Assembly: GCA_945788325.1 (NCBI GenBank)
Contig: CALZLL010000001.1
Span: 1 to 50,834, forward strand
Direction of reading: 5' to 3'
From: an uncultured Clostridium sp.
GTDB lineage: Bacteria > Bacillota_I > Bacilli_A > RF39 > UBA660
Length of the DNA stretch: 50,834 nt
Shown: positions 90 to 45,557 of the stretch, in pieces
Position numbering within the stretch: position 1 is the first letter of the stretch
Layout: every line of letters starts with the position of its first letter
Notes under the pieces: model-generated
Database searches by the model: none
Told to the model about the DNA's origin: nothing
Seen by the model: only the letters and a program-made list of their open reading frames with translations
Made by a program: the position numbers and the translations under genes

Positions 90-431
90 ATGAAATCTAA
101 TAAAGGTCAAGCGTTAGTAGAATTTATTATAATTTTACCGATTACACTAATTCTTATTTTTTGCGTTGTTGATTTTGGAAGAATAATATCTACCAAAGGA
201 GAATTAGAAGATAAAACCCAAGATATAGTTACTTTTTATGAAAGTGGTAAAACTTTAGAAGAAATAAACTTAATCATGGATAATAAAGATATTAAAATTG
301 ATTTTAAAAATAATGGGGATTATGTTACTCTTACAATAAATAAAAAAATAAAACCAATAACTCCTGGATTATCATATATTTTGGATGAAGCGTTTAACGT
401 TGAAGTAACCAGGGTGATAAAAAATGAATAG
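90..431 (+). CDS. TadE-like pseudopilin / Flp pilus assembly protein
   Basis: N-terminus KGQALVEFIIILPITLILIFCVVDFGR matches the TadE-type motif (G-x-x-x-VEF plus a hydrophobic helix). RBS aggggtgg lies upstream. Sits at the head of the tadZ-tadA-tadB-tadC block. Confidence 0.6.
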   Translation: MKSNKGQALVEFIIILPITLILIFCVVDFGRIISTKGELEDKTQDIVTFYESGKTLEEINLIMDNKDIKIDFKNNGDYVTLTINKKIKPITPGLSYILDEAFNVEVTRVIKNE

Positions 432-819
432 GCTTAACTCTAAAGGGCAAAGTTTGGCAATCTTTGTAATTTTTGTACCAGTTTTTATCATGATTGGGAC
501 TTTGGTTGTAGATGTTTCTTTTGCGCGTTACAACGTAAGAAAATTAGATAATATAAATAAGTTAGTAATAAATTATGGATTAGATCATATAGAAAGTGAT
601 CCTTATGATAACATGGTTGATTTGATTTATAAGAATGATTCTGAAGTAGATAATTACGAGATAAAAATTAACCTTGAAGAAAAGAAAATAAACGTTAATA
701 TTTCAAAATCTACAAAAGGTTTTTTTGGTAGTATTGTTGGAAAAGAAATATATAAAGAAAAAAGTTTTTTTATAGGATACATAAAAGATGATAAAAAAAT
801 AATAGAAAAGGATGATTAG
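424..819 (+). CDS. TadG/Tad_N-like pilus assembly protein
   Basis: N-terminus KGQSLAIFVIFVPVFIMIGTLVVDVSFARY resembles the TadG-like N-terminal domain. Overlaps the preceding gene by 8 nt (translational coupling). Confidence 0.5.
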   Translation: MNRLNSKGQSLAIFVIFVPVFIMIGTLVVDVSFARYNVRKLDNINKLVINYGLDHIESDPYDNMVDLIYKNDSEVDNYEIKINLEEKKINVNISKSTKGFFGSIVGKEIYKEKSFFIGYIKDDKKIIEKDD

Positions 820-820
820 T

Positions 821-1609
821 ATGAAAAAAGAAGCTGCAAAGGTAATAACTGTTTTTTCATGTAAAGGTGGTGTTGGAAAAACAACTACCACACTTAATTT
901 AGCAGGTATATATAGTTTGATGGATAAAAAGGTTTTAATTATGGATCTTGATTTAAATAGTGGTGGTGTAGCGGTTAGTTTAAACGTTGATGTATCAAAA
1001 ACAATTTATAACGTAGTTGATGACATGGGTAACAATCGCTTTGATGATATTGAAAATTACGTTTGTAAATATAATGATAAAATAGATGTTTTATCATCGC
1101 CAAAAGACCCAAGAAACGCTATGAAAATAGATTCTAAGTACATTGGGCTTGTTATTACTTCTGCCATGTATAAATATGATGTTATTTTAATAGATACATC
1201 TCATAATTTAAGTCCAATATCACTTACGGCATTAGATAAAAGTGATAATACGTTATTTATGGTTACTAATGATCCGGTTGATTTAAAGAATGCAAAAAGT
1301 ATGATTTCAATATTTAAAGATACTGAAAATGATAATTATAAAGTTGTTTTTAATTCTTCTAAAGATACTGGTAAAGATTACTTTTCATTATTTGATGTTA
1401 AGAACATTATTAAGCATAACATTGATTATACGATAGATAAAAGTTTTTATATAAAAGACATTGATAAATATGTTATAGATGGTGATATTCTTACTTTAAA
1501 TAAAAAAATAAGAATATCTAAAAAAAGTGATGTTATGAAACTTACCAAGTTAGCTAATGCTTTAATAGAACCAAAGCCAAAAAAAATAGAGGTGAAAAAA
1601 GATGCCTAA
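821..1609 (+). CDS. TadZ/CpaE-like ParA/MinD-family ATPase
   Basis: Deviant Walker A CKGGVGKTTTTLNLAG and position directly upstream of the CpaF-like ATPase. The ORF track starts at 812; the ATG at 821 has better spacing to RBS aaagga. Confidence 0.7.
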   Translation: MKKEAAKVITVFSCKGGVGKTTTTLNLAGIYSLMDKKVLIMDLDLNSGGVAVSLNVDVSKTIYNVVDDMGNNRFDDIENYVCKYNDKIDVLSSPKDPRNAMKIDSKYIGLVITSAMYKYDVILIDTSHNLSPISLTALDKSDNTLFMVTNDPVDLKNAKSMISIFKDTENDNYKVVFNSSKDTGKDYFSLFDVKNIIKHNIDYTIDKSFYIKDIDKYVIDGDILTLNKKIRISKKSDVMKLTKLANALIEPKPKKIEVKKDA

Positions 1610-2936
1610 GAAAAAATTAATGGAAGAATTTGAAATAAAAGAAGAAAAAGTAACTACTAAACCAGTTGCGGATTATGATATATTTAAAGATAAAGAATTA
1701 TTGGATAATTTAAGAAATAGTATTATTTCTAATTTGATTGATGATAAAATTCCTGATAATAAACTGCTTCATGAATACATAAATGATGAAATTGATAAGG
1801 CTCTTTTAGGATATGATTTAACAAATTTAGAACGTAGTCATATATTTAACTTAATTGATAATGAAATAAATGGTTATGGTCCTATTACGGAGCTGTTAGA
1901 AGACCCTAATATTACCGAAATAATGATTAATGGAGAAAATGAAGTTTATGTTGAAATAGATGGTCAAATTAGTAAGGATGAATCTGTTTCATTCATTAAT
2001 GATGAACACATCATAAGAACCATTCAAAAAATAGTTCAACCATTAGGTAGAACGATAGATACCGCAAATCCTATGGTAGATGCAAGATTAGAAGATGGAT
2101 CAAGACTTAATGCGGTAATACCACCATTGTCATTAAAAGGACCAGTTGTTACGATAAGAAAGTTTAGACGAGATATGGAAACGATTGAAGACTTTTTAAG
2201 AACTGGTGCAATGACACCTTACATGGCACGTTTTTTAGATGCTGCGGTAAGATCTAAACTAAACATAATTATATGTGGTGGTACAGGCGCTGGTAAAACA
2301 ACTTTACTTAATGCTTTATCTTCATTCATTGGTGATCATGAACGTATTATTACAATTGAAGATGCAGCTGAGTTAAGACTTAATCAATCACACGTAATTA
2401 GTCTTGAAACAAGGTTAGTAAATTATGAAGGTACCGGAGAAGTTACCATTCGTGATTTAGTTATAAATTCACTTCGTATGAGACCAGATAGAATAATTGT
2501 TGGAGAAGTACGTGGTAAAGAAGCATTTGATATGCTTCAAGCCATGAATACCGGACATGATGGTTCTCTTACAACGATGCATGCTAATAGTCCAGTAGAG
2601 GCTTTAAACAGACTAGAAACCATGGTTTTAATGGCTGGTATGGAAATACCAATTAAAGCTATTAGAGAATATATTGAAAACGCAATAGATTTAGTAGTTA
2701 ACGTATCAAGATTATCAGATGGAAGAAGAAAAGTAACTAGTATTTGTGAAGTAGATGGTTTTAAAGAAGATATGATTGAATTAAAAGAAATATTTAATTT
2801 TAAACAAACTGGTTTAACAAATGCTGGAGAAGTAGATGGATCATTTGATCTTAAAAAACGTATTCCAAAGGTTTATAACAAAATTAAAAGTAGAGGTATA
2901 GATGATTTAGACGACATATTTAAATTTAAAAAATAG
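1602..2936 (+). CDS. tadA: Tad secretion ATPase (CpaF/TadA family, VirB11-like)
   Basis: Walker [15 protein letters not shown], then [21 protein letters not shown] and [13 protein letters not shown], which are typical of CpaF/TadA. Confidence 0.9.
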
Positions 2937-2948
2937 GAGGTAATAAAG

Positions 2949-3941
2949 ATGAATATATTTATCATTCAGACAATTATAATGGTACTTTTAGCTTTTATTA
3001 TTTTCTATTTAATATTATATAATAATAGTCTAAAGTTAGAGAAAAGAATATCAAAGTATAGTATTGAATCTATAAAAAGTGATTCAGTTTCATTATTTGA
3101 TTTAATATATAACGATTATAAAAAATTAATAGCATATCTTACTAAAAAACTTAATAAAAGTGCTATTATAAAAAAATATGCAACTAAATATAATAAGTAT
3201 ATAACTTATGAAAATGATAAAGATATAGTTGCTATGGATTACGTTAGCAACAAAGTATTAATTTGCATACTATTTATTTTAATTATTATATTTGCAAGAA
3301 TAATAGAAGGAATATTTCCTAGTTTTATAGATTTATTAATATCATCATTATTAGGCTTTTTTTCAATTGATATATATTTTAAATTCTATGATTATATTAA
3401 GAAAAAACAGATAGAACAAGACTTATTAAACGCTATTATCATAATGAATAATGCGTTTCGTTCTGGTAGAAGTACGATGCAAGCTATTGAAATAGTAGCT
3501 AAAGAACTAAAAGGACCAATAAGTCAAGAATTTAAAAAGATGCATTTAGAAATAAGTTATGGCTTATCACTTGACGTTGTATTTGAAAGATTTTCAAAAA
3601 GGATAGAATCAGAAGAGGTAAGCTATATTACGTCATCTCTTAGTATTTTAAATAAAACTGGCGGTAACATAATAAAGGTTTTTTCTTCAATAGAAAAAAT
3701 GCTATTTAATAAAAGAAAGTTAAAGCAAGAAATGAAGTCTCTTACGTCATCAGCTAATATGATAAGTAAAGTTTTACTTATTATGCCTTTTGTTTTTGTA
3801 GCGGTTATTTCTCTTTTGAACCCAACTTATTTTACACCTTTATTTAATACTAGCTTAGGTAATATTTTACTTATTATAATAGTAATAATATATGCATTAT
3901 ATGCCTTCATAGTTAACAAAATCATGAAAGTGAGGTTTTAG
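2949..3941 (+). CDS. tadB: TadB-like type II secretion system F-domain membrane protein
   Basis: Polytopic membrane protein with a T2SSF-like cytoplasmic helical region (AFRSGRSTMQAIEIVAKEL). Follows tadA. Confidence 0.7.
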   Translation: MNIFIIQTIIMVLLAFIIFYLILYNNSLKLEKRISKYSIESIKSDSVSLFDLIYNDYKKLIAYLTKKLNKSAIIKKYATKYNKYITYENDKDIVAMDYVSNKVLICILFILIIIFARIIEGIFPSFIDLLISSLLGFFSIDIYFKFYDYIKKKQIEQDLLNAIIIMNNAFRSGRSTMQAIEIVAKELKGPISQEFKKMHLEISYGLSLDVVFERFSKRIESEEVSYITSSLSILNKTGGNIIKVFSSIEKMLFNKRKLKQEMKSLTSSANMISKVLLIMPFVFVAVISLLNPTYFTPLFNTSLGNILLIIIVIIYALYAFIVNKIMKVRF

Positions 3942-3943
3942 TA

Positions 3944-4648
3944 ATGAAACAAAAAAAATCATTTATATACCGCATTTATCGTGAAAAAGATATAAAGAAA
4001 ATTGATGATAAAATAAATTTATTTGGAGTTTCTAAAAAATTTACAACCGAGTATTTTATGAACTTTAGATTATACTCATCAATGATAGTGTTTTTATTAA
4101 TATTTGTATTTGCTAACTTTGGAGCATTACTAGCACCAATTATAACTGTGTTATGGTATGTTTTAGTAGGTTATACCATGATTGATAAGCCTCTTAAGAA
4201 AAGAGAAAGAAAGTTAGATAACGAAGCATATTATTATTTTGAAGTATTAACTTTGGCGTTAGAATCTGGAAGAAATCTAGAAAATGCTATAAAAATGGCA
4301 TGTAAATACATAGATTCTGAAATATCAGATGAGTTTAAAGAAACAATAAAACAAGTTAACTTTGGTAAATCTTTAACGGAAAGTTTATCGCTTATGAGTT
4401 ATCGTATTCCTAGTTTAACAATTAATAATATTATTTTAAACATGGAACAATCAAATCTTTTTGGTAATAGTATAATAGAAACTATGTATAACCAATTAGA
4501 CTTCTTAAAAGATAAACAAGTCATGGACATAAAATCTCAAATTAATAAAATTCCAAATAAGATAAGTATCTTTTCAGTATTATTTTTTATACCTCTTATT
4601 CTACTTATAATATTAGGACCAGTATTAATAGAATTTATTTTAGGATAA
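3944..4648 (+). CDS. tadC: TadC-like type II secretion system F-domain membrane protein
   Basis: Second T2SSF-like membrane protein (LALESGRNLENAIKMA) immediately after tadB. Confidence 0.65.
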   Translation: MKQKKSFIYRIYREKDIKKIDDKINLFGVSKKFTTEYFMNFRLYSSMIVFLLIFVFANFGALLAPIITVLWYVLVGYTMIDKPLKKRERKLDNEAYYYFEVLTLALESGRNLENAIKMACKYIDSEISDEFKETIKQVNFGKSLTESLSLMSYRIPSLTINNIILNMEQSNLFGNSIIETMYNQLDFLKDKQVMDIKSQINKIPNKISIFSVLFFIPLILLIILGPVLIEFILG

Positions 4649-4670
4649 CAAGTTTTAACTTGTTATTTTT
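4648..4670 (+). terminator. Rho-independent terminator after tadC
   Basis: Stem acaag/cttgt followed by tattttt. Confidence 0.5.
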
Positions 4671-4696: not shown

Positions 4697-4724
4697 TTGA
4701 TAATTGACTATAAAACTATATAAT
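4697..4724 (+). promoter_or_regulatory. Sigma-A-type promoter for surface-protein paralog A
   Basis: TTGATA, 16-nt spacer, TATAAT, about 35 nt upstream of the RBS ggaaaggag. Confidence 0.5.
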
Positions 4725-4757
4725 GATACTATGATAATAGTAGGAAAGGAGTAAAAA

Positions 4758-6059
4758 ATGGAAAAAGAAAGAAGAGCAAAAACATTAAGTATAGTAGCTT
4801 TAATAGTTGCAATATTAGGCTTAACAATAGCGTTTGCAACACTATCACAAACACTAACAATAAATGGAAGCGCATACTTAAACGCAACAAAGTGGGGAAT
4901 AAAGTTTGAAAACTTATCATCACCAATAAAGGTAGGTGATGCAACAGTTACTGGGGAAGCTAAAATAAATGAAAGTACCTACGTAGAAATAGCAAATATG
5001 AACGTTAATTTAAAAACACCAGGAGATAGTGTTACATATAACGTAGATTTAGTAAACGAAGGAACAATAAATGCAAAAATAGATGAAATAGTAAAAACTA
5101 CAACACCTGATTATTTATCATTTAAAGTAATAAAACAAGATAATAAAGAATTAGAAGAAGGATATGTATTAGGTAAAGAAACAAGAATACCCTTAAGAAT
5201 AGAAATAGAATTTAAGAAAGATATAACAAAAGAAGACTTACCAAAAGAAGCAATTACAATAGAACTATCATATGCTTTAACATTTGTACAAACGGATGAA
5301 ACCGCTACAAGCATTGGACAAACTCCATCATCAGCATGTACAATATTTGATAAAAAAGATACATACCAAGTAGGAGATGAAATAGCCCTATGTAATAATG
5401 ATACAAATAAATCAGAAGACTTCTATGTAATAAGTGATAATGGAGATACAGTAACAGCGCTAGCTAAGTATAATTTACTTGTTGGTAATGAAGTTGAAAT
5501 AGATAATTTTGAAGATTATAATATAGTTAGAAATGATCCGATAGATTCATCAACTACTGGATATGGATTGCAAAATAGTAGTGCAAAAGCATTTGTATTA
5601 GATAACACTATCTGGACTGGAACAATAGTATTTGCCGAAGATAAAAATAAGGGTAATGGATATTGGGCACCAACTGGTAGTCTCTTAAGTACGTATGGAA
5701 CAAGTTATCCAGCATACGTATTTGATGAAAATTCATTATTATATGAACCATTAAAGAATTATGAATCATATATAAAAACAACATTAGGAAAAACAAGTGT
5801 AAATACTAGTTTATTAACCTATGAGCAAGCTACTAGCTTAGGTTGTGTTAAAGATAATCGTACATGTGAAGCTGCACCTAGTTGGGTATATGAAACGTCA
5901 TACTGGCTTGGTTCTGCTCTCGGTGGAAGCTCTGTTCCAGGTGTTGAGTCGTATGGCGGTTTCGAATGCTGGTATGACTTCAACTACGACATCTACTTCA
6001 ACAGTGGCTACCCTCTCGGTTTGCGTCCAGTCATAACAATAGCTAAAACTGATTTATAA
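4758..6059 (+). CDS. Surface protein paralog A: N-terminal signal-anchor, beta-rich N-domain (TasA/camelysin-like by motif, tentative), C-terminal lectin-fold-like domain ending in a hypervariable segment
   Basis: N-terminus MEKERRAKTLSIVALIVAILGLTIAFATLSQTLTINGSA, then PGDSVTYNVDLVNEGT. C-terminal pattern LLTYEQATSLGC ... SYWLGSA-(variable)-GLRPVITI resembles DUF1566 / C-type-lectin-fold DGR targets. The gene is certain; the functional call is tentative. Confidence 0.5.
   Translation: MEKERRAKTLSIVALIVAILGLTIAFATLSQTLTINGSAYLNATKWGIKFENLSSPIKVGDATVTGEAKINESTYVEIANMNVNLKTPGDSVTYNVDLVNEGTINAKIDEIVKTTTPDYLSFKVIKQDNKELEEGYVLGKETRIPLRIEIEFKKDITKEDLPKEAITIELSYALTFVQTDETATSIGQTPSSACTIFDKKDTYQVGDEIALCNNDTNKSEDFYVISDNGDTVTALAKYNLLVGNEVEIDNFEDYNIVRNDPIDSSTTGYGLQNSSAKAFVLDNTIWTGTIVFAEDKNKGNGYWAPTGSLLSTYGTSYPAYVFDENSLLYEPLKNYESYIKTTLGKTSVNTSLLTYEQATSLGCVKDNRTCEAAPSWVYETSYWLGSALGGSSVPGVESYGGFECWYDFNYDIYFNSGYPLGLRPVITIAKTDL
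5919..6032 (+). other. Candidate DGR variable region (VR-A) within paralog A
   Basis: Of 38 codons, 18 end in C (ctc agc ggc ttc tgc gac ttc aac tac gac atc tac ttc aac ggc tac ctc gtc), versus 2 of the first 38 codons of the same gene. 20 of 114 nt are A. The segment ends 9 codons before the stop. Confidence 0.55.
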
Positions 6060-6195
6060 TAAATAAAATGAATAACTAATAATTTGTTATTCTCTTTTTG
6101 TAAAGAAACTTTACAGCACGTATATATTTTTATTTACTGGGAATATTTTTAATGATAATATTTAATTATAAGATAGTGATAATAGGAGTGCTGTT

Positions 6196-7260
6196 ATGAA
6201 AAAGGATATAGTTGAATACTTGGGATTTGATGAGGAAGAAGAAAAGAAAAAAGTAGGAAGACCAAAACTTGCTGATAAAGAAACAAAAAGAAAATCTTTA
6301 ATTATAGCTAGTGTATCTTTTTGTGCAGTTATTCTATTACTAATTTTTGGATATGGAACTTTATTTGGATTTAAAAATTTAAATTTAAAAGGTACCGTTA
6401 GTAATAATGAAATAAATCAAGATACGTTAGTTGAAGAAATAAAACCACTTGTTAAAGATATAACTCTTAAAACTGGTACTGCAAGAAAGGTATATTTAAC
6501 TGTTTTACCAGCTAGTGCAAACGATAAATCTATAAGTTATAAAAGTTCTGATGAATCTGTTGCGATAGTTGATAATGAAGGTAAAGTTACTGGAATATCA
6601 GTTGGTAATGCTACTATAACTGCTACTACTAATGATGGTTCTAACTTAAGTACCACATTTAAAGTAAAGGTAATTAAAAACGCAGAAGGAAAATGTGTTT
6701 TTACATCACTTTCAAAGACTTCAAATGGTATAGAATATGAAACTGAATGTAATAATGCAAAGATAAAGGAAATACAATATAAAGTAGGAGACGATAACTT
6801 TGAAAAGTTACTTACTAAAAAGACAACTGATGAAGTTAAGTTTTCTAAAGATCAATTAGATAATAAAATAACTTTTAAAATAGTATATTATCCAAATAAT
6901 AGTAAAATTACTAAATACGAAGTTAAAACATTAAATGGCAAAGAAAAAACTACTAAAGCACCTACTGGAAATTGCTCTCTTATATTAAAAGATGTAAAGG
7001 CATCATCTGCTAAGTATGATATAACGTGTGATAATGCTAGTGTTACTAAAATTGCATATAAGATAGGAAATGGTAGCTATATTGGTCTTGAATCAAGTAG
7101 TTTAGCTGACACAATATTATATGAAGAAAGTGATGTAACAAGGGTTATATACTTTAATATAGAATATGTAATTGATGGAACTAATAATGTTAAAACAATA
7201 ACAAAAAGTAGTATAATAGAAAAGAAAATAATAAATAATGATGTAGAAGGAGAAATGTAA
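6196..7260 (+). CDS. Membrane-anchored protein: N-terminal KVGRPKLA motif, TM helix, Big_2-like Ig domain, two Cys-pair repeat modules
   Basis: EEKKKVGRPKLADKETKRKS followed by hydrophobic LIIASVSFCAVILLLIFGYG. SDESVAIVDNEGKVTGISVGNATITATTNDGS is Big_2-like. Modules GKCVF...ECNNAKIKEIQYKVG and GNCSL...TCDNASVTKIAYKIG. Confidence 0.5.
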   Translation: MKKDIVEYLGFDEEEEKKKVGRPKLADKETKRKSLIIASVSFCAVILLLIFGYGTLFGFKNLNLKGTVSNNEINQDTLVEEIKPLVKDITLKTGTARKVYLTVLPASANDKSISYKSSDESVAIVDNEGKVTGISVGNATITATTNDGSNLSTTFKVKVIKNAEGKCVFTSLSKTSNGIEYETECNNAKIKEIQYKVGDDNFEKLLTKKTTDEVKFSKDQLDNKITFKIVYYPNNSKITKYEVKTLNGKEKTTKAPTGNCSLILKDVKASSAKYDITCDNASVTKIAYKIGNGSYIGLESSSLADTILYEESDVTRVIYFNIEYVIDGTNNVKTITKSSIIEKKIINNDVEGEM

Positions 7261-7261
7261 A

Positions 7262-7645
7262 ATGGCAAAGAAGGAAGAAAAAAATAAAGTAGGAAGACCA
7301 AAACTAGCTGATAGTAAAACAAAAAAGGAATCAATATTTATATGTATTTTTACTATGGTTGTAATAACAATTGTAGCTATTTTGGGATATAATATTTTAA
7401 CGATTGATTTTAATCCCAAATATAATGTTGGTTCAATTTATAATACTCATGTTTCATCTTGTGTAATTGAAGATAAAAAAATTGATTGTGGACCTAACGT
7501 TACTTATATGAAGTATAAATTAGATAATGAAGGTTGGATAGAAGTTAGTAAACAAGATAAAAGCATAGAAGTAGCACTTGATAATAATAAAAAAGTTGAG
7601 TTTTGCTATAAAACTGATAAAACTGATATAAAATGTAATAAATAA
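7262..7645 (+). CDS. Small membrane-anchored protein: N-terminal KVGRPKLA motif plus one Cys-pair module
   Basis: KEEKNKVGRPKLADSKTKKES followed by TM IFICIFTMVVITIVAILGY. C-terminal CVIEDKKIDC...YMKYKLDNEGW. Confidence 0.5.
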   Translation: MAKKEEKNKVGRPKLADSKTKKESIFICIFTMVVITIVAILGYNILTIDFNPKYNVGSIYNTHVSSCVIEDKKIDCGPNVTYMKYKLDNEGWIEVSKQDKSIEVALDNNKKVEFCYKTDKTDIKCNK

Positions 7646-7669
7646 CTTGTAATACACAAGTTATTTTTT
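7643..7669 (+). terminator. Rho-independent terminator
   Basis: taacttgt-aatac-acaagtta followed by tttttt. Confidence 0.7.
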
Positions 7670-7702
7670 GTATATAAAGTATATTTTTGGGAATTTATAT
7701 AT

Positions 7703-8452
7703 ATGGTGATTACTTTGATAAATGATATTTTAAATACAAATTGGTATGAAGTAGGAATAGTTGCTTCAAGGGCATTATTTTCATTAGTTACGCTTTTTTT
7801 TATAACAAGATTAATTGGTAAAAAACAAGTCTCTGAACTTAGTTTATTTGATTATGTTATAAGTATTTCAATAGGAAACTTTGCTGCTGAGATGTCAATG
7901 AATTTAGATGCACAAGTAATAAATGGATTTGTTGCGGTATTAATTTTTGGACTTATTGCTACCATGGTAGCCATTCTTACCATGAAAAGTATATTTCTTA
8001 GAAGATTTTTCATGGGAACTCCCACTATAATAATAGAAAATGGTAAGTTTATATATAAAAATTTAAAAAGGGTGAAAATGGATATAAATGACTTTTTAGA
8101 AACGGCAAGAATAGCTGGTTATTTTGACATAAGTCAGATAAAATATGCTTTAATGGAAGCAAATGGTAAAGTAAGTTTTTTACCAATGGAAGATTATAAT
8201 TATTTAACCCCAAAAGATATGAATATAAAACCAAGTAAAAGTGGGTTATGTGCTAACGTTATTATAGATGGTAAAATAATGAAAAATAATTTGGATGTAA
8301 TAGATAAAGATGGTAATTGGTTACTTAAACAACTAAAAATAAAAGGTATTAACGATATAGATGAAATTTTACTTGCAACTGTTGATATAAATGAAAAGCT
8401 AGTAATTTATAAGAAAGAAAGTAAAGAGTTTATTAAAAATATACTTGAATAA
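7703..8452 (+). CDS. DUF421 (YetF-like) membrane protein
   Basis: N-terminal pattern RLIGKKQVSELSLFDYVISISIGN is typical of the DUF421/YetF family of spore formers. Confidence 0.6.
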   Translation: MVITLINDILNTNWYEVGIVASRALFSLVTLFFITRLIGKKQVSELSLFDYVISISIGNFAAEMSMNLDAQVINGFVAVLIFGLIATMVAILTMKSIFLRRFFMGTPTIIIENGKFIYKNLKRVKMDINDFLETARIAGYFDISQIKYALMEANGKVSFLPMEDYNYLTPKDMNIKPSKSGLCANVIIDGKIMKNNLDVIDKDGNWLLKQLKIKGINDIDEILLATVDINEKLVIYKKESKEFIKNILE

Positions 8453-8514
8453 CATTTAAAATAAATATATTGCTTTCTTTCTTTTTTTTATGTTATTATT
8501 TATTTGGTGATAAT

Positions 8515-22904: not shown

Positions 22905-24197
22905 GTGGAAAAAGAAAGAAGAGTAAAAGCACTAGCAATAGTAGTACTTGTAATAGCAGTGCTAGGGCTTACAATAGCATTTGCAGCATTATCACAAACA
23001 CTAACAATAAATGGTAGTGCAAAACTAGATGCATCAAAATGGGGACTTAAGTTTGATAATCTAGTATTAGCATCAGGAAATGAATATGTAGAAGGAACTG
23101 CAAATATAAAAACAGATGATAATACTGTAATAGAAAATATGAACGTAAGATTAACAACACCAGGAGATAAAGTAGTATATACGGTAGACTTAGTAAATGA
23201 AGGAAGTATAAATGCTAAGATAGATAATATAGTAAAAACAGTATTAACAACCGAGCAAGAAAAATATTTATCATTTAAAGTATTAAAAGAAAATAATGAA
23301 GAATTAAATGAAGGATATGTATTAGGTAAAGAAACAAGAATACCACTAAAAATAGAAATAGAATTTAAAAAAGATATAACGAAAGAAGACTTACCAAAAG
23401 AAACAAGTACAATAACGTTATCATATGGTGTAACATTTGTACAAACAGATGAAAAGATAGCAACAACAGGACAAGGACCTACAACAGCATGTACAATATT
23501 TGAAAAGAAAAGTGCATATAATGTAGGAGATGAAATAGCCCTATGTAATAATGATACAAATAAATCAGAAGACTTCTATGTAATAAGTGATAATGGAGAT
23601 ACAGTAACAGCTCTTGCTAAGTATAATTTACTTGTTGGAAATGAAATCGAACTTAATAATAAAGAAGAAGTTATTGTATCTAATATTGTTAGAAAGGATC
23701 CAATAGATCCATCAACACCTGGATATGGATTGCAAAGTAGTGAATCAAAAGGATTTATATTAGATAATACTGTATTTATCGGAATAATAAACTTTGCTGA
23801 AAATAATACTATTGGATATTGGGCAGAATCAAGAACTGCACTTTTAAGTAAATATGGAACAAGTTTTCCAGCATATGTATTTGATGAAAATTCATTATTA
23901 TATGAACCATTAAAGAATTATGAATCATATATAAAAACAACATTAGGAAAAACAAGTGTAAGTACTAGTTTATTATCTTATGAGCAAGCTACTAACTTAG
24001 GTTGTGATAAAGCTAATAAAACATGTGAAGTTGCACCAAGTTGGGTATATGAAACATCTTACTGGCTTGGTTCTGCTGCCAATGGTCTCCACGTGATGGG
24101 CGTTGCATCGAATGGTTCCTTAGCGAATCACAGCTTCTACACCGAATTCCGTTTAGGTCTTCGCCCAGTTATAACAATATCAAAAACTGATTTATAA
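22905..24197 (+). CDS. Surface protein paralog B (same architecture as 4758..6059)
   Basis: GTG start after RBS aggagg. The N-terminus and several internal blocks are near-identical to paralog A at nucleotide level. C-terminal SYWLGSA-(variable)-GLRPVITISKTDL. Confidence 0.5.
   Translation: MEKERRVKALAIVVLVIAVLGLTIAFAALSQTLTINGSAKLDASKWGLKFDNLVLASGNEYVEGTANIKTDDNTVIENMNVRLTTPGDKVVYTVDLVNEGSINAKIDNIVKTVLTTEQEKYLSFKVLKENNEELNEGYVLGKETRIPLKIEIEFKKDITKEDLPKETSTITLSYGVTFVQTDEKIATTGQGPTTACTIFEKKSAYNVGDEIALCNNDTNKSEDFYVISDNGDTVTALAKYNLLVGNEIELNNKEEVIVSNIVRKDPIDPSTPGYGLQSSESKGFILDNTVFIGIINFAENNTIGYWAESRTALLSKYGTSFPAYVFDENSLLYEPLKNYESYIKTTLGKTSVSTSLLSYEQATNLGCDKANKTCEVAPSWVYETSYWLGSAANGLHVMGVASNGSLANHSFYTEFRLGLRPVITISKTDL
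24078..24170 (+). other. Candidate DGR variable region (VR-B) within paralog B
   Basis: Of 31 codons, 12 end in C (gcc ctc cac ggc tcc cac agc ttc tac acc ttc cgc). 18 of 93 nt are A. Same position in the domain as VR-A but 21 nt shorter. Confidence 0.5.
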
Positions 24198-24201
24198 TAA
24201 A

Positions 24202-24227
24202 AAATCCAATTTATTTGGATTTTTTTA
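24202..24227 (+). terminator. Rho-independent terminator after paralog B
   Basis: aaatccaa-tttat-ttggattt followed by ttttt. Confidence 0.75.
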
Positions 24228-33442: not shown

Positions 33443-34363
33443 ATGAAAGAATGGCTTTTAAAGGATGAAAAGAATAAAGTTGGAAGACCAAGATTAGCTA
33501 GTGACGAAGTTTTAAAAAAAGCTAAAATATCAATTGCGGTAGGTTTTATAATTAGTTTTGTTCTTATGTTTTCCTTTTTTAGCATCTTAAAAGGCACAAC
33601 TCCTACAAAATACGCATATTCTCTTACTTTAGAAAAACTATTTGGAGAGTTAACAAATAAAAATGGTTTTATAGTAAGTGATTATTATGATAAAAATGAT
33701 GATTATGTTATGGAATTTAAAGTTCCAGACGTAATATATAATTATTCAGGATCTTATAAATATACATTATATGAACTTAATAATAACGAATGGAAAGAAA
33801 AAGATAGTAAAACAATTGATAAAGAAGAAAGAAGTTTTAAGATAAAAGTTAAATCTTTAAAAAACCAAAATAAAACTTGGAAGATAAAGTTACAAATTAT
33901 AAATGCTACCAATATAAAAGAAGCTTATAACCCATCTTCTTGGCAATTTAATGATTCTAAAAATACTAAAGATATGTATGCGTATAAAGTATTTACTGTA
34001 AAAGGATATTATAGCCCGGTATTAAATGAAGAATTAAAAGAATCTAAAAAGAGTAATGATAAAATAACGATAGATACTAAAAAAGAAGATCCTAGAAGTT
34101 TTATTGTAAATTTAAATGATGGGGTATATAACGTGGTTGTTAAATATACTGATACAGCTTCTAAGGAAGTTTTACTAGCAAATGATAAAGAAGTAAGTGG
34201 AATAAAAGAGTATGTAATACCTGGATTAGATCGCTCTACTAAGGTGGTATTTAAAATTTATGGTGAAGATGTTAAAAGTAAGAGATTATCTAATTGGCAA
34301 TATCAAGAAAGTAAAGGATATATTACTAATAGTTATGTTTTAAAACCAGAAAAAGCATATTAA
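33443..34363 (+). CDS. Membrane-anchored protein with N-terminal KVGRPRLA motif (third family member)
   Basis: DEKNKVGRPRLASDEVLKKAK followed by TM ISIAVGFIISFVLMFSFFSIL, then a beta-rich ectodomain containing YTLYELNNNEWKEKD, which resembles YKLDNEGWIEV of 7262..7645. Confidence 0.5.
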   Translation: MKEWLLKDEKNKVGRPRLASDEVLKKAKISIAVGFIISFVLMFSFFSILKGTTPTKYAYSLTLEKLFGELTNKNGFIVSDYYDKNDDYVMEFKVPDVIYNYSGSYKYTLYELNNNEWKEKDSKTIDKEERSFKIKVKSLKNQNKTWKIKLQIINATNIKEAYNPSSWQFNDSKNTKDMYAYKVFTVKGYYSPVLNEELKESKKSNDKITIDTKKEDPRSFIVNLNDGVYNVVVKYTDTASKEVLLANDKEVSGIKEYVIPGLDRSTKVVFKIYGEDVKSKRLSNWQYQESKGYITNSYVLKPEKAY

Positions 34364-40423: not shown

Positions 40424-40532
40424 CTCTATAATAATATATGTAAATGTATGATTATGTTTAAATAATATGTAAAAAAGAGTTTAAAAAATAAAAAAATATG
40501 TTATAATTATTTTATAGAATAGGAAGGTGTTT

Positions 40533-42344
40533 ATGAACGCGCTAGAGATTATATTATTGCCATTTGTTTTTATATATAGAGGATTCATAAGTGTATTATT
40601 AATACCATATTACATAGTTATTGGTATAGGTAAATTATTTAGTGGTGGAAAGTCAACTAAAAAGACTATCCCTGAAATAAAACCTGGAGAACAAGTAAAA
40701 GTTATCAAAGAAAAAAAGTCTGCTTATAATAAACCAAAAGCCCCGGTAAAAGAAATAGATAAGGTTAAATTAGCTCAAGAAAAAGACCAAAACAAATTAA
40801 AAAGACAAAAGGAATTTGAAAAATTAGTAGCTAAAGCAAGAGCTGAAGAAGAAAGAAGAATTAAAGAACAAGAAAGATTAAGAATTGAGAATGAAAGAAA
40901 AGAAAAAGAAAGAAAGGCTCGTGAGTTAGAACGACAAAAAAAAGAAGAAGAACTTGAGGCGTTAAGAGAAAAAAAAGAAGAAGAATTAAAAGAAATGGGA
41001 GAGCCAGTTACTTTTTCTGATAAGTTAAAAGCTTTTTATAAAAAACTTACATATAATAAAAAAGAAGAATTAGAATTAGAAGCTAAAAAAGCTGTTTTAG
41101 ATGAACAATTTAAAGATAAAGATGCTAAAAATTCTAGATTTGCTAAAGCTTTAACCTTTGATTATACCGCTCGTAATGCTAATGGAGTTTTAGAAAAAGG
41201 CACCATTGAAGCTTTATCTAGGGTTGATGTTCACTCGTTCTTAACCGCTGAAGGTTATGAGGTATATGAAATAATTCCTGCGAAAGCTAACATAAAATTT
41301 ATAACTTATAGAATGAAAAGAAATCGTTTGATTTTCTATCTATCACAATTGTCTGCTTATTTAAAATCTGGAATAGCACTAGCAGACGCTGTCAAAATAT
41401 TAGATGACCAAGCAAAGAATGTTAATGAAAAGAAAACATGGCGTGCTGTATATTATGATTTATCAATGGGTGATGTGTTATCACTAGCTATGGATAAAAG
41501 AAAAGAAACATTCCCAAGACTTTTAATTAACATGATTAAAACCGCTGAAATGACTGGTAATTTAACTGAAACTTTAGATGATATGGTTGATTATTACACA
41601 GAATCAGAAAGTACAAAAAAACAAATGAAATCTGCAATGATGTATCCTATTATGGTAACTATTTTTGCATCTGTAGTTGTTACGTTTATACTTATGTGGG
41701 TTGTTCCTCAATTCGTTGATATCTATTCTGATTTAGGTAGTGATTTACCTGTTATTACTAAAGTGGTAATAGGAATAAGTGATTTTTTAAAAAATTATTT
41801 AATATTTATTTTATTAGCAATAATTATTTTAATATTAATTTATACGTATTTATTTAAAAACGTTAAATCATTTAGAAGAAGTATGCAAGAATTTGCAATG
41901 CATTTACCTGTTTTTGGTAACATCATTATATATAACGAAGTAACTATTTTTTCTAAAACATTTGCTAACTTAATAAATCATAATGTTTTTATAACCGATT
42001 CAATGGATGTATTAAGTAAAATAACAAATAATGAGGTTTATAAAAAATTAATTTTTGACACTGCAAGAAACCTTACTAAAGGTGAACCAATTTCAACTGC
42101 TTTCAAAGATCATTGGGCATTTCCAAACATTGCTTATCAGATGCTTATTACTGGTGAAAAAACAGGTCGTTTAGGACCAATGATGGAAAGAGTTTCTAAA
42201 TATTATCAAGAACAACATAGAAGTATAATTAATCAAATGAAATCACTTATTGAACCAATAATGATAATTACTCTTGCATTATTAGTAGGTTTCATATTAT
42301 TATCTGTAATACTTCCAATGTTTAGCATGTATGATGCTTTATAG
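40533..42344 (+). CDS. pilC: Type IV pilus / T2SS platform protein (PilC/GspF family) with a ~175-aa N-terminal extension
   Basis: Two T2SSF repeats in the C-terminal ~400 aa (LSAYLKSGIALADAVKIL ... ; FANLINHNVFITDSMDVL ...). N-terminal hydrophobic hairpin followed by a K/E/R-rich helix. Confidence 0.8.
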   Translation: MNALEIILLPFVFIYRGFISVLLIPYYIVIGIGKLFSGGKSTKKTIPEIKPGEQVKVIKEKKSAYNKPKAPVKEIDKVKLAQEKDQNKLKRQKEFEKLVAKARAEEERRIKEQERLRIENERKEKERKARELERQKKEEELEALREKKEEELKEMGEPVTFSDKLKAFYKKLTYNKKEELELEAKKAVLDEQFKDKDAKNSRFAKALTFDYTARNANGVLEKGTIEALSRVDVHSFLTAEGYEVYEIIPAKANIKFITYRMKRNRLIFYLSQLSAYLKSGIALADAVKILDDQAKNVNEKKTWRAVYYDLSMGDVLSLAMDKRKETFPRLLINMIKTAEMTGNLTETLDDMVDYYTESESTKKQMKSAMMYPIMVTIFASVVVTFILMWVVPQFVDIYSDLGSDLPVITKVVIGISDFLKNYLIFILLAIIILILIYTYLFKNVKSFRRSMQEFAMHLPVFGNIIIYNEVTIFSKTFANLINHNVFITDSMDVLSKITNNEVYKKLIFDTARNLTKGEPISTAFKDHWAFPNIAYQMLITGEKTGRLGPMMERVSKYYQEQHRSIINQMKSLIEPIMIITLALLVGFILLSVILPMFSMYDAL

Positions 42345-42359
42345 AAAGGAAAAATACTT

Positions 42360-43148
42360 ATGAGTTTAGAAGTTTTAAATGGTATCATGATATTTATAAT
42401 TGGACTTATATTTGGATCTTTTTATAATGTTGTAGGATACCGATTACCAAATAATATGTCGATTGCATTTCCTGCATCTCATTGCATAAATTGTAATCAT
42501 AAACTAAAATTTTATGAACTCATTCCGGTTATATCCTATGTTTTTCTAGGTGGTAAATGTAAAGCTTGCAAAAAAAGGATATCAATCGTTTATCCTTTTT
42601 TTGAGCTTCTTACTGGTACATTATTTTTACTTTCATATTTATTTTTTGGATTAAATTTAAAATTTTTAATTGCAATAACCTTTATTTCAATACTTATAAT
42701 AATAAGTATAAGCGATATTAGATATTACATTATTTCAGATGAAGTTTTAATTATTGGTAGCATTTTAATTATTATAGAAATGATAATTTATGCACTTATA
42801 AATGACTTAAGTTTAGTTAAGGAAGTTTTAATACCTATATTAAATGGTGCTGGTAGTTTTGCGATACTTTATTTGTTTAAAGTATTAGGAGATTTTATAT
42901 TTAAAAAAGAAAGTCTTGGTGGTGGAGATATAAAATTAATGTTTTTTATAGGGTTAACGCTAGGATTTGATATGTCTATTGTAACTATATTTATAGCTTC
43001 TTTTATAGCACTTCCTTTATCAATAATAAGTTTAATTAAAAATGATAATAATGTTTTACCTTTTGGTCCATATTTATCAATAGCAGCTGTAATAATATTA
43101 TTGACTAATTTAGACTTGGATATGATATTAAATTTTTTTGTAAAGTAA
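42360..43148 (+). CDS. pilD: Prepilin peptidase (A24 family, PilD/ComC-like)
   Basis: N-terminal CxxC...CxxC (CINCNHKL ... CKACKKRIS). Catalytic Asp motifs ISDIRY and GGGDIKLM. Confidence 0.9.
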   Translation: MSLEVLNGIMIFIIGLIFGSFYNVVGYRLPNNMSIAFPASHCINCNHKLKFYELIPVISYVFLGGKCKACKKRISIVYPFFELLTGTLFLLSYLFFGLNLKFLIAITFISILIIISISDIRYYIISDEVLIIGSILIIIEMIIYALINDLSLVKEVLIPILNGAGSFAILYLFKVLGDFIFKKESLGGGDIKLMFFIGLTLGFDMSIVTIFIASFIALPLSIISLIKNDNNVLPFGPYLSIAAVIILLTNLDLDMILNFFVK

Positions 43149-43156
43149 TATAAAAT

Positions 43157-43216
43157 AAAAAAGCATTGCTTTTTGAACTACCTTATATAGGGTAGACATC
43201 AAAAGCAATGCTTTTT
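43157..43216. terminator. Nested inverted repeat / bidirectional terminator between convergent pilD and pilB
   Basis: Outer arms aaaagcattgctttt and aaaagcaatgctttt are perfect reverse complements. They enclose an inner hairpin ctacc-ttatata-gggtag. Confidence 0.65.
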
Positions 43217-44525
43217 ATAAATCTAACATTTCCATACCATCATCTTCAACATTGTTATTAGAATTTTGATTAACGGAAGGTTGAGATGCTTGTTCTTGGT
43301 TTGATGAAGAAACATCTTTACCAGAAACGATTCTTACTGATTCATCATCAAGTTCTACTAAACGAAGAATTTCTTCAATTGTTGTTGTATTTTGTAATAC
43401 TTTTTGAAGACCATCTTGTAAAAGGGTAGTAGTATCTCCTTTATATACTAGCTTTCTTAATTCTTCTTTTGGCATACCATTTGATATTGCGTCTCTTATT
43501 TCTTGAGATATTACTAATACTTCATGAATAGCAATTCTTCCTTTATAACCACCAACGCACTCAGAACATCCTTCTGCATATGCAAGTTCGGTTATATCAA
43601 CACCTAGATTTGCTTTTATAAGCTTTTTTTCATAATCAATAGCAGGTCTTTTTTTCATACAATGAGGGCATATTCTTCTAGCTAATTTTTGTGATACAAT
43701 ACCATTTAATGAACTAGCAAGTAGGTATGTTTCAACATCCATATCTTTTAAACGTTCAATAGTATTTAATGCGTTATTTGTATGCAAGGTAGATAATACT
43801 AAGTGACCAGTAATAGAAGCTCTAACTGCTATTTTTGCCGTTTCATCATCACGAATTTCACCAATCATTATTATATCTGGGTCTTGACGTAATATAGAAC
43901 GTAAAACTTCAGCAAAGGTAAGTCCAATTTCACTATTAACCTGAATCTGGTTCATACCCGCAATATTCATTTCTACTGGATCTTCAACCGTAACTAAGTT
44001 AACTTCAGATGTGTTAAGAGTTTGAAGCATTGCGTAAACCGTAGTTGATTTACCTGATCCGGTAGCGCCAGTTACCAGTATGATACCATTAGGTTCTTTT
44101 ATTAATTCTTCAATCTTTTTTAAATTATTAGGTGTAAGACCTAATGCATTAAGACCTTTCATAGAAGTAGAATAATCTAAGATACGAATAACTATTTTTT
44201 CACCTTCATTTGTAGGAAGAGAAGAAACACGCATGTCTAAATTAATATCTTTTATGGTTGTTTTAATAGCACCATCCTGTGGAAGCCTTGATTCAGTAAT
44301 ATCCATACCAGATATAATCTTAAGTCTAGCAATTAAATTTTTTCTAATAGCCTCAGGAATCAAAACGTAATCTATTAGTACACCATCTATTCTAAACCTT
44401 ACTTTAATTGTTGTTTCGGTAGGATCGAAGTGGATGTCACTAGTACCAGCTTGCGCTGCAATATATATTATTTCATTTACTATTTCAGTAATAGGTAATT
44501 TAGTAAAATCTATTTGTTTTAACAT
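43215..44525 (-). CDS. pilB: Type IV pilus assembly ATPase (PilB/GspE family), short form
   Basis: Walker A GATGSGKSTT, Asp box, Walker B IIMIGEIRD, His box LSTLHTN, tetracysteine CPHC...CSEC. No long N-terminal GSPII domain. Q/N/S/acidic C-terminal tail. Confidence 0.85.
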   Translation of the reverse strand: MLKQIDFTKLPITEIVNEIIYIAAQAGTSDIHFDPTETTIKVRFRIDGVLIDYVLIPEAIRKNLIARLKIISGMDITESRLPQDGAIKTTIKDINLDMRVSSLPTNEGEKIVIRILDYSTSMKGLNALGLTPNNLKKIEELIKEPNGIILVTGATGSGKSTTVYAMLQTLNTSEVNLVTVEDPVEMNIAGMNQIQVNSEIGLTFAEVLRSILRQDPDIIMIGEIRDDETAKIAVRASITGHLVLSTLHTNNALNTIERLKDMDVETYLLASSLNGIVSQKLARRICPHCMKKRPAIDYEKKLIKANLGVDITELAYAEGCSECVGGYKGRIAIHEVLVISQEIRDAISNGMPKEELRKLVYKGDTTTLLQDGLQKVLQNTTTIEEILRLVELDDESVRIVSGKDVSSSNQEQASQPSVNQNSNNNVEDDGMEMLDL

Positions 44526-44646
44526 TCATATCGCTCCCTTATTATTCTTTATTCTTTTTTTATTCTTATCTTTTCTACTAGATTTTATTATAATAATATT
44601 ATATAATATATTTTAGAAGATAGCAATAAAGAAAAGGTGATATTTT

Positions 44647-45207
44647 ATGAAAAAGAATAACAAGGGATTCTTTTTAGCAGAAACTATAGTTGTAATAGCA
44701 CTTGTTACAACTGTTATGGCATTTGTTTATCCTAATGTTACTAAGTTGTATGAAAATTATAAAAACAGGGCTAATTATTATGATCAAACAGAGGATTTGT
44801 ATATATTAAAAGCGGTTTATGAAGCTAATAAAGAAATAATTGATGAATATACCGAAGGAGCAGATAATTGTATAATAGAAGATATTTATGCCGAAAAAGG
44901 TGGTGGAAATATATCATATCTTCAGGATACTAATGATCCTAATAAAGCACCTATTAATAAACCACCTATTTTAGTCGAATTATATATAAGTAGCTATATG
45001 TCAACCCTTTCATCAGATAATTATAATTTTAATAAATATTTAAAAAGATTAAAAAAAACAACTTATGATGGTGGTGCATATAGACTTATAGGTATTTTTG
45101 AAAAAAAAGATGGTTCGGGGAAAATAATAGAAACAAGGTATGCATCTATTAAAATCGATAATCCAAACCCAGATAGATATTGTAATTTAGGAGGAAAACA
45201 AGACTAA
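44647..45207 (+). CDS. Type IV prepilin-like protein
   Basis: Class III signal MKKNNKG|FFLAETIVVIALVTTVMAFV, with Glu at +5 after the predicted G|F cleavage. Confidence 0.75.
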   Translation: MKKNNKGFFLAETIVVIALVTTVMAFVYPNVTKLYENYKNRANYYDQTEDLYILKAVYEANKEIIDEYTEGADNCIIEDIYAEKGGGNISYLQDTNDPNKAPINKPPILVELYISSYMSTLSSDNYNFNKYLKRLKKTTYDGGAYRLIGIFEKKDGSGKIIETRYASIKIDNPNPDRYCNLGGKQD

Positions 45208-45557
45208 TGAAAAAAGTTAATAATAAAGGTATAACATTAATTGAACTAATTGTAAGTTTTGCATTAATAGGTGTTTCGATAATATACTTTTCTCAAACTT
45301 TATATACGGTAAAAAAAGTTTATGCTACCGCAAGAGATGAAACTAATGAGTTTATAGCTAAAGATTATGCGTTAAGATTACTTGATAAATATATTGATGA
45401 AAATGGTACAACTAATTTAACATCTAATTTTTGCGTTAAAATTGTGGATTGTAATGATATAGTGGTAAGCACTGATAATGGTCTTAATACTTATCAAATT
45501 AATGGTATTATATTTGGAAATGGTAAAACAACATCGGCAACATTATATAAAAATTAA
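45207..45557 (+). CDS. Type IV prepilin-like (minor pilin/pseudopilin) protein
   Basis: MKKVNNKG|ITLIELIVSFALIGVSIIYF, an N-terminal cleavage/methylation motif with Glu +5. Confidence 0.75.
   Translation: MKKVNNKGITLIELIVSFALIGVSIIYFSQTLYTVKKVYATARDETNEFIAKDYALRLLDKYIDENGTTNLTSNFCVKIVDCNDIVVSTDNGLNTYQINGIIFGNGKTTSATLYKN

Follow-up and report, generated by a model that had tools for sequence, protein, structure and literature searches.

What kind of protein is encoded directly after the platform genes of a Tad pilus locus, and why does one short part of it differ so strongly from the same part of its paralog? These questions are raised by a 50,834 nt stretch of DNA from an uncultured Clostridium sp. 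of the UBA660 lineage (contig CALZLL010000001.1, positions 1 to 50,834; "the window" below always means this whole stretch), which carries two genes of one family, copy A just 3' of tadC and copy B farther downstream (Table 1). A first-pass annotation, made from the letters and ORF translations alone, had asked whether copy A is a Tad-displayed or otherwise polymerizing adhesin with a diversified tip. We think it likely, with a probability of about 0.65, that both copies belong to a family of exported surface proteins whose lectin-like tip contains a variable region that is rewritten in the manner of a diversity-generating retroelement (DGR).

A multi-copy family of three-part proteins

Both genes are real open reading frames (ORFs), and their products are built of the three parts that the first-pass annotation had described, namely a basic N-terminus with a single hydrophobic helix, a conserved middle segment and a lectin-like variable C-terminal domain; the strings that it quoted, KERRAKTLSIVALIVAILGLTIAFA and TLSQTLTINGSA...TPGDSVTYNVDLVNEG, are present in copy A. 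The two proteins are 69% identical, with N-terminal halves that are nearly the same and a last ~40 variable residues that have strongly diverged, and the AlphaFold2 model of full-length copy A (mean predicted local distance difference test score, pLDDT, of 81) consists of a helix (residues 3–28), a beta-sandwich (33–180), a linker and a globular C-domain. Neither protein has a match above threshold in Pfam, NCBIfam or the PDB sequences, profiles included. Copy A has at least 844 full-length homologues, so the conservation of the family is far above what chance would give; none of them is informatively named. Their source assemblies, from the guts of humans and animals, carry the labels Clostridium sp. 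CAG:594, "uncultured Bacilli" or "uncultured Tenericutes". In single metagenome-assembled genomes (MAGs) the copy number is 5 to 8 or more; housekeeping genes surround most of the paralogs, and many contigs break off within a family gene. The multi-copy family to which copies A and B belong is one of spore-forming gut Bacilli that are uncultured and low in GC, with about 5 to 10 or more of its genes in each genome. The window itself is 22–34% GC, and it contains the sporulation genes YqfD and a GerM-type "Germane" gene, so its host is a walled spore-former.

Variable regions of the window copies

At the DNA level copies A and B are about 90% identical up to TACTGGCTTGGTTCTGCT and again from GGTYTNCGYCCAGT, and the ~100 nt between these points are poorly alignable. 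This interval, the variable region, also stands apart in composition. Third-position GC (GC3) is 21/36 (0.58) in the variable region of copy A against 50/397 (0.13) in the rest of the gene (p 1.7e-9), and 16/31 (0.52) against 33/399 (0.08) in copy B (p 6e-9); the adenine fraction is 0.18 against 0.43 in copy A and 0.18 against 0.45 in copy B, and the copy A region, measured over 90 nt, has a GC content of 0.52 and an AT skew of -0.30. Both copies carry the compositional footprint of adenine mutagenesis, that is adenine depletion and NNC/NNT codons within the variable region, and both have the GC-rich boundary GGTYTNCGYCC at the 3' end of the gene. Over 113 family copies the variable-region GC3 is bimodal, with 48 "hot" copies at 0.44–0.68 and the rest at 0.06–0.35, and copies A and B are both hot.

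Might the pair be ordinary anchored lectins or adhesins with no programmed variation, the anomaly being that of a Gly/Ser/Tyr/Asp-rich binding loop? The amino acids of the variable regions (G, S, Y, F, D and N) are typical of such loops, and many "cold" members of the family have ordinary codon usage in the same region. In copy A, however, 12/15 of the two-fold degenerate pyrimidine-ending codons of the variable region end in C, whereas only 6/62 do so elsewhere in the gene; the corresponding figures for copy B are 6/9 and 4/59. Because the C-ending excess holds within these codons, the anomaly does not come from amino acid composition, and this synonymous-codon test, together with the template repeats and adenine-specific mismatches of relatives described below, makes the ordinary-lectin explanation very improbable.

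Comparison with near relatives (comparison loci carry L numbers) places the divergence in the same part of the gene. In L005 and L120 the flanks are 96–100% identical to the window, the genes are 46–94% identical and the variable regions are lowest, at 46–60%; at the L005 locus, which holds the syntenic orthologue of copy B, the flanks are 97–100% and the variable region 55–60% identical.

Template repeats and adenine-specific mismatches in relatives

The first-pass annotation had suspected a connection with DGRs, and at the level of the family this connection is real. No template repeat was found in a first pass over 34 loci; in a later metagenome set such repeats exist, but only in another sub-clade than that of the window copies. 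There, at 16 metagenomic loci, a family gene is followed, some 175 nt past its stop codon, by a repeat that translates as ASANNNNNVWNVNSNGNFDSNNFDNSGNYGLRP. The repeat hardly varies from locus to locus and is rich in Asn (AAY) codons, and it is non-coding, since one of its alleles has in-frame TAG and TAA codons. When the variable regions are counted against the best template allele for each locus, mismatches fall almost only on template adenines: 17/34 adenines and 2/65 other bases differ in L086, and 16/31 and 2/68 in L094, both with the template adjacent, and the figures are 18/31 and 2/68 in L107 and 24/34 and 3/65 in L046, where the template is not adjacent. This is the signature of a DGR, and the same procedure, applied as a positive control to the phage DGRs of L115 and L117, gives clean A-only mismatches. 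Template and variable region of these relatives share the GC-rich GGTCTTCGCCC and diverge after it. The same template allele is found beside different variable regions (L084 and L104), and two alleles are present on one 68-kb contig (L093 and L094; OLOX01000151.1). The L093 and L094 genes are about 18 kb apart and have identical variable regions (…ASADNSINVWAVDTYGYFGSFSFGNSGNFGLRP…), each then followed by its own, different template allele.

A GNAA-tetraloop hairpin stands directly after the stop codon in 20/40 hot genes and in 2/42 cold ones (p 2.9e-6), and it matches the hairpin/cruciform target-recognition element of DGRs. We note also a conserved, GC-richer and hairpin-rich element of ~175 nt (CACCGAAAGGTGCTTATAGTCCCGATTTTGGGAC...GTGTTTCAGGTYTGCGATTAAGCAAAGCTGAAAC) that comes after the stop codon in four hot members of the family (L012 2690–2870; L014 11360–11540; L019 1008–1190; L027 928–1100); its L014 copy has no match in Rfam, no template repeat follows it, and it is absent from the window.

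Points against rewriting of the window copies

Several observations weigh against the idea that the window copies are themselves rewritten in this way. No template repeat was found in the 50.8-kb window, either by blastn with both variable regions or by a pattern for AAY runs, and no reverse transcriptase (RT) was found there by a motif regular expression, an RT hidden Markov model (HMM) or Pfam searches of the unannotated ORFs. Motif and HMM searches likewise found no cognate RT in ~120 family loci, including the 10 kb on either side of the 16 template repeats, so that the RT negative covers the window and these loci, not whole genomes. A metagenome-collection scan for the window-type variable-region/template scaffold (GGTTCTGCT...TCG..TGG...) gave 0 matches; the window species is therefore not in that collection. 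In copy A the variable region exceeds the canonical length by 7 codons and is out of register with the template alleles, and that of copy B differs from the available alleles at 20/31 adenine and 28/68 non-adenine positions. The GNAA-tetraloop hairpin is absent after both window copies. The variable regions vary in length, differ at synonymous sites, and contain K, E, Q, M and W, whose codons are out of reach of AAY mutagenesis by itself. The orthologue groups P0017, P0036 and P0051 keep identical variable regions while the remaining protein diverges; diversification is therefore not continuous everywhere. Finally, the assignment of the window proteins themselves to DUF6273 or to the C-lectin fold lies below every curated threshold, Pfam DUF6273 matching neither of them at E values up to 1.

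Scans of viral contigs for family relatives and for the template repeat both gave 0 matches, and in the literature we found no mention of this lineage or this family as DGR targets. The only family contig that bears an RT is the 3.2-kb contig L038, in which 42% GC DNA (1300–3232) encodes a phage-type DGR RT. We rejected it as the cognate enzyme: the contig matches L006 exactly up to a point 50 nt beyond the stop codon and is 42% GC from there on, and the relatives of its RT, in L115 and L117, lie in myovirus tail modules with their own unrelated template/variable pair. L038 is probably an assembly chimera with phage DNA.

Recombination among paralogs and strains

The absence of a template repeat, RT and hairpin from the window as searched, and the unequal lengths of the variable regions, would also suit an explanation in which the paralogs now vary by recombination or gene conversion and diversifying selection only, the DGR signature being inherited from donors or left by an extinct DGR. 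Exchange is indeed plain to see. Copy B and its L005 orthologue show mosaic divergence across the whole C-domain, indels included; the gene at the tadC locus of L120 resembles copy B (80.6%) more than copy A (70.8%), although its flanks are 96–99% identical; L055, L058 and L077 have identical N-domains on different C-domains; in L119, compared with L122, another copy, with hairpin and spacer, has taken the place of the resident gene as far as the boundary of the variable region; and L081 and L119 retain 3' gene fragments on the downstream side of newer copies. The mosaic divergence, the L120 swap, the shared N-domains and the L119/L122 pair together indicate that gene conversion or replacement acts alongside hypermutation of the variable region. 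What recombination alone does not explain is an adenine depletion confined to ~100 nt. A third-position C/G of 0.5–0.6, where the genome GC3 is ~0.1, should decay quickly unless it was templated recently, the hot and cold classes are cleanly separated, and relatives have template/variable-region pairs of the active type. For these reasons we regard recombination without present rewriting as unlikely.

The loci of the window clade bear on both processes. L119 has a family gene, a CACC-GTAA-GGTG hairpin, a spacer of ~200 nt and a 3' gene fragment that is diversified and not Asn-rich; no Asn-rich template repeat was found in L119–L122, and L120–L122 lack any such fragment. In L081 (10733–10866) and L119 (11497–11640) the diversified fragment lies at the position of the template repeat and has a stop codon and a terminator of its own. 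Two origins come into question: an overwritten template repeat, or a remnant left after a gene copy with its spacer replaced the resident up to the variable-region boundary. A terminator, AAAAAATCCAATTTATTTGGATTTTTTT, is common to window 24203–24227, L119 11640–11668 and L122 3803–3830, which are non-syntenic places after family genes or fragments; terminator and gene 3' end therefore move as a unit.

A proposed model for rewriting

The reading that we prefer, diversification in the DGR manner, would work as follows. A Sec-type signal peptide or anchor would export the protein, and the conserved N-terminal beta-sandwich would hold out a DUF6273-like, ligand-binding C-terminal domain, at the tip of which ~30 codons would form the variable region. 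This region would be rewritten by mutagenic retrohoming: an invariant, non-coding, AAY-rich template would be transcribed and then reverse transcribed with errors at adenines, and the cDNA would replace the variable region, with the result that the binding specificity of each paralog is diversified. Whole C-domains and genes would in addition be exchanged between paralogs and strains by recombination. From their membership in the family and their composition we infer that the window copies are probably written by a DGR now, or were so recently.

The layout of such a system may be that of a DGR with dispersed orphan templates, several per genome, each ~175 nt past an individual target gene and behind a tetraloop hairpin and a promoter-like spacer, whose RT acts in trans from more than 10 kb away and possibly belongs to an unconventional clade; we consider this arrangement conceivable and somewhat doubtful. 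The same machinery may occasionally copy cassettes of gene, spacer and template into the loci of paralogs, leaving mutagenized 3' fragments of the type seen in L081 and L119.

The C-terminal domain and known DGR variable proteins

Modelled alone, the C-domain has a pLDDT of 87 and a predicted template modelling score (pTM) of 0.87, and weak Pfam and fold matches make it DUF6273-like, in keeping with the lectin-like variable domain that had been annotated. Pfam DUF6273 (PF19789) matches 3/24 family C-domains, with a best E of 0.0035. The single meaningful PDB match of the model is 9qa6, the IgA peptidase of Thomasclavelia ramosa (E 4.7e-3, probability 0.89), and it is a weak one, with 12% identity, a query-normalized template modelling score (TM) of 0.38 and a root-mean-square deviation of 12 Å over 304 columns; Foldseek gave no match to other solved C-lectin-fold variable proteins. 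The top BFVD matches include gut-phage proteins named "DUF6273 domain-containing" (TM 0.36–0.53, probability 0.8). Ligand binding by the C-domain is probable. The N-terminal domain of the T. ramosa peptidase is a DUF6273 domain (PMC12402451), and that enzyme is likewise secreted, a surface protein from a gut species of Bacillota; unlike in the present family, DUF6273 there lies N-terminal to an M64 peptidase and is not known to be hypervariable. DUF6273 itself is reported to be a C-type-lectin-like scaffold of DGR targets, among them the tentaclins and other proteins of gut phages (PMC10743442).

The family resembles known DGR variable proteins in having its variable region at the end of the gene, where it takes up the last ~100 nt and is part of a globular domain of lectin-like type, and the relatives add an AAY-rich template, adenine mismatches, a GC-rich end of homology and a tetraloop hairpin after the variable region. 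Mtd of Bordetella phage BPP-1 and TvpA of Treponema denticola are DGR variable proteins with a C-type-lectin-type fold. The family differs from such systems in that no RT or Avd gene stands beside the template, that the template lies ~175 nt past the stop codon of its own target, and that at least two template alleles occur on one contig; in that the targets are chromosomal genes among housekeeping genes rather than phage tail genes; and in that the N-module is unannotated, the window proteins are under the DUF6273 threshold and the window has neither template nor RT. What is unusual here is the unannotated generic N-module, the high number of paralogs, and the templates that lie beside targets without a nearby RT. 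Several non-adjacent targets per genome, as in this family, are also reported for Treponema and "lineage 4" DGRs (PMC5758913).

The N-terminal module and the likeness to TasA

AXA at positions -3 to -1 marks a type I signal-peptidase site. In this family A25, F26 and A27 are invariant, and the predicted helix 3–28 of copy A has low pLDDT; judged from its sequence, the N-terminus of copy A is probably either a Sec-type signal peptide, to be cut at a type I motif, or a signal anchor that stays uncleaved.

The beta-sandwich that follows is found far beyond this family. A profile made from the two window N-domains (E ≤1e-3) matches at least 4,575 representative clusters, always at residues 1–190, in proteins of 170–1,154 aa, and the C-termini of the sampled long ones are BspA-type LRR_5 arrays, the ALK_LTK glycine-rich domain (ALK_LTK_GRD) or Peptidase_M26_N-like regions. 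With so many clusters and such varied C-termini, the N-module is a generic export or display device and not a Tad-specific one. Stand-alone N-module proteins of 212–215 aa exist as well (L001 6037–6684; L002 3350–3988 and 5961–6608). The L001 and L002 proteins have an insertion, flanked by Cys, that contains a D-x-D-x-(N/D)-G-x-I loop of dockerin/EF-hand-like type, and Pfam Dockerin_1 matches one stand-alone member (E 0.0013).

Because the first-pass annotation had likened the middle segment to the N-terminus of TasA/camelysin fibre subunits, we weighed a further explanation, that the protein is a polymerizing fibre subunit or tip adhesin whose N-terminal strand is donated TasA-style once the signal peptide has been cleaved, and that it is displayed by the neighbouring Tad machine or assembled together with it. 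Family and TasA motifs can be paired (NMNVNLKTPGDSVTYNVDLVNEGTINA with SVNLSNLKPGDKLTKDFQFENNGSLAI), and the family shares with TasA/camelysin and the archaeal bundling pilin AbpA (7ueg) a secreted beta-sandwich after a signal peptide and the hairpin motif N-L-x-P-G-D...N-x-G. The segment after the predicted cleavage site, LSxTLxIxGxA, is invariant; the stand-alone N-domain proteins could be "major subunits"; and with the full-length model Foldseek finds the TasA-like archaeal pilins 7ueg_A (probability 0.85) and 7pnb_A (0.80), which form donor-strand filaments. The measured similarity is low, however. TM is ~0.31 in these matches, and hhalign of the N-domain with Bacillus subtilis TasA covers 27 columns around NLxPGDxxxxxxxxxNxG with a probability of 18.8%. 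The Peptidase_M73 profile search that the first-pass annotation had proposed as a check is sub-threshold, at 12.6 bits (E 0.12) for the copy A N-domain against a cut-off of 22.5 bits and a best E of 0.0015 among the 5/15 N-domains matched, and DUF11, a non-filament surface repeat, matches equally well (likewise 5/15, sub-threshold). No SipW-type signal-peptide model of NCBIfam matches copy A or B at E values up to 1, and no signal peptidase is seen among the gene products or Pfam results of the window. Unlike TasA/camelysin, moreover, the family module precedes large unrelated C-terminal domains. The likeness to a TasA fibre N-terminus is not supported, and together with the Tad evidence that follows this makes the fibre explanation improbable.

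Relation to Tad and type IV pili

Copy A does lie directly 3' of the Tad platform genes, as had been annotated: the Pfam T2SSF pair ends at 4648 and the gap is 109 nt. The same order, the Tad genes and then a family gene, recurs in L034, L055, L058, L077 and L106, which with the window makes six loci, and the tadC-adjacent gene of L077 also has a template repeat. Set against this, tadC is directly upstream in only 3/65 copies with visible upstream sequence and at 3 further loci, one paralog per genome, most paralogs are elsewhere, the N-module heads thousands of unrelated surface proteins at loci without Tad genes, and a hairpin with a T-run and a promoter-like site lie between tadC and copy A. 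Display by the Tad machine is accordingly not borne out.

That copy A is no ordinary Tad or type IV pilin is confirmed. Neither copy has a Flp (G/XXXXEY) or type IV (G/FTLxE) motif, nor a match to Pfam N_methyl, Flp, TadE or Class_IIIsignal, unlike the TadE-like ORF at the start of the Tad locus; the N-terminus of copy A, MEKERRAKTLSIVALIVAILGLTIAFA/TLSQ, has no class III signal motif, the GQALVEF type of TadE included, and has the AXA type I motif instead. One observation in favour of a link to pili comes from L034, where the gene after tadC (7310–8491) has a canonical type IV pilin N-terminus (MSNKKGFTLVELLAVIVVLAII, KKGFTLVELLAVIVVLAII) fused to the family C-domain; it contains one in-frame stop codon and is a pseudogene or an assembly error. 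This fusion is the sole hint of pilus display and does not apply to the window protein with its type I signal peptide; in the window there is no sign of coupling between copy A and the Tad machine. It is also conceivable that the N-module serves gut Bacilli in general for surface display or fibre formation, as a module of a new kind, and that one paralog has been connected to Tad or type IV pili; at such a connection the pilin-headed L034 variant hints.

A parallel is offered by the DGR-diversified adhesive parts of Bacteroides type V pili, also surface adhesive proteins of a gut commensal, whose DGRs are RT-containing cassettes on integrative and conjugative elements (bioRxiv 10.1101/2024.11.15.621889). 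These belong to another phylum, another pilus system and another fold context.

Gene neighbourhood in the window

The features of the window are collected in Table 1. Between tadC and copy A an AT-rich inverted repeat, AACAAGTT-TT-AACTTGTT followed by ATTTTT, overlaps the tadC stop codon; it was not reported by a terminator scan that needs at least three G-C pairs. The first-pass annotation had given copy A a promoter of its own, and a TTGATA-16-TATAAT site is present, but promoter-like sites in this 25% GC region number 12 against 11.5 expected from shuffles. Because the number equals the shuffle expectation, a separate transcription unit for copy A is plausible only.

Three ORFs of the window (6196–7260, 7262–7645 and 33443–34363) share an unusual N-terminal motif, K(N/K)KVGRP(K/R)LA, which is cytoplasmic and precedes a single transmembrane helix, and the first of them has a Big_2 domain in addition. 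No family assignment was found for them; orthologues lie 3' of the copy A locus in L007, L008, L024 and L120. The Tad-type locus opens with TadE-like and TadG-like genes (90–819), and in the relative L106 (2500–4700) the DNA upstream of tadE shows no small gene for a Flp-type pilin. The window has a second filament system at 40527–45557.

Table 1. Features of the window (positions in nt of the 50,834 nt stretch)
Feature	Position	Strand	Remarks
Tad-type secretion/pilus gene set as a whole	90–4648	+	context of copy A
TadE-like	90–431	+	Pfam
Tad/TadG-like	424–819	+	Pfam
CpaE/TadZ-like ATPase (AAA_31)	812–1609	+	Pfam
T2SSE ATPase	1602–2936	+	Pfam
T2SSF platform protein, first	2949–3941	+	Pfam
T2SSF platform protein, second (tadC)	3944–4648	+	Pfam
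Possible terminator between tadC and copy A	4647–4670	+	read from sequence
Promoter-like TTGATA-16 nt-TATAAT	4697–4724	+	11/12 match; 34 nt 5' of copy A ATG; suggestive
Shine-Dalgarno-like GGAAAGGAG	4743–4751	+	7 nt 5' of copy A ATG
Copy A, 433 aa, predicted exported surface protein with hypervariable lectin-like C-terminal domain	4758–6059	+	ATG start
Putative signal peptide or signal anchor, aa 1–27	4758–4838	+	basic n-region MEKERRAK, 19-residue hydrophobic segment, AFA at -3 to -1
N-terminal beta-sandwich, aa 28–188, with TPGDxVxYxVDLVNEG hairpin motif	4839–5321	+	AlphaFold2 strands 33–179
Globular C-domain, divergent DUF6273-like (C-type-lectin-like) fold, aa 189–433	5322–6056	+	domain model
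Copy A variable region, aa 387–422, ALGGSSVPGVESYGGFECWYDFNYDIYFNSGYPLGL	5916–6023	+	GC-rich, adenine-depleted, NNC-codon-rich; alignment with copy B and L005
GC-rich variable-region end GGTTTGCGTCCAGTC, codons GLRPV, IMH-like	6018–6032	+	point where variable-region/template homology stops in relatives
Terminator-like hairpin GAATAAC...GTTATTC, then T-run, after copy A	6070–6099	+	
Copy B, 430 aa paralog	22905–24197	+	between diacylglycerol-kinase-like genes and era
Copy B variable region, about aa 391–420, AANGLHVMGVASNGSLANHSFYTEFRLG	24074–24163	+	canonical length; alignment, composition
T2SSF/PilC-like	40527–42344		
Prepilin peptidase-like	42360–43148		
PilB-like ATPase	43215–44525	-	
Pilin-like ORF	44647–45207		
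Pilin-like ORF with N_methyl motif	45207–45557		

Implications

The N-module and this clade of C-domains are without Pfam or NCBIfam annotation, despite an N-module that heads thousands of clusters, and the family breaks MAG assemblies, contigs ending inside its genes, which affects estimates of gene content. DGR surveys start from an RT and look nearby for a template; templates that lie beside their targets and far from the RT would be missed, so the prevalence of DGRs and the numbers of their targets may be underestimated. If the reading preferred here is true, small-genome gut Bacilli that are known only from metagenomes spend 5 to 10 or more genes on surface binders that are programmable and antibody-like, which would bear on their attachment to hosts, food particles and other microbes, and on the evasion of phages or of immunity.

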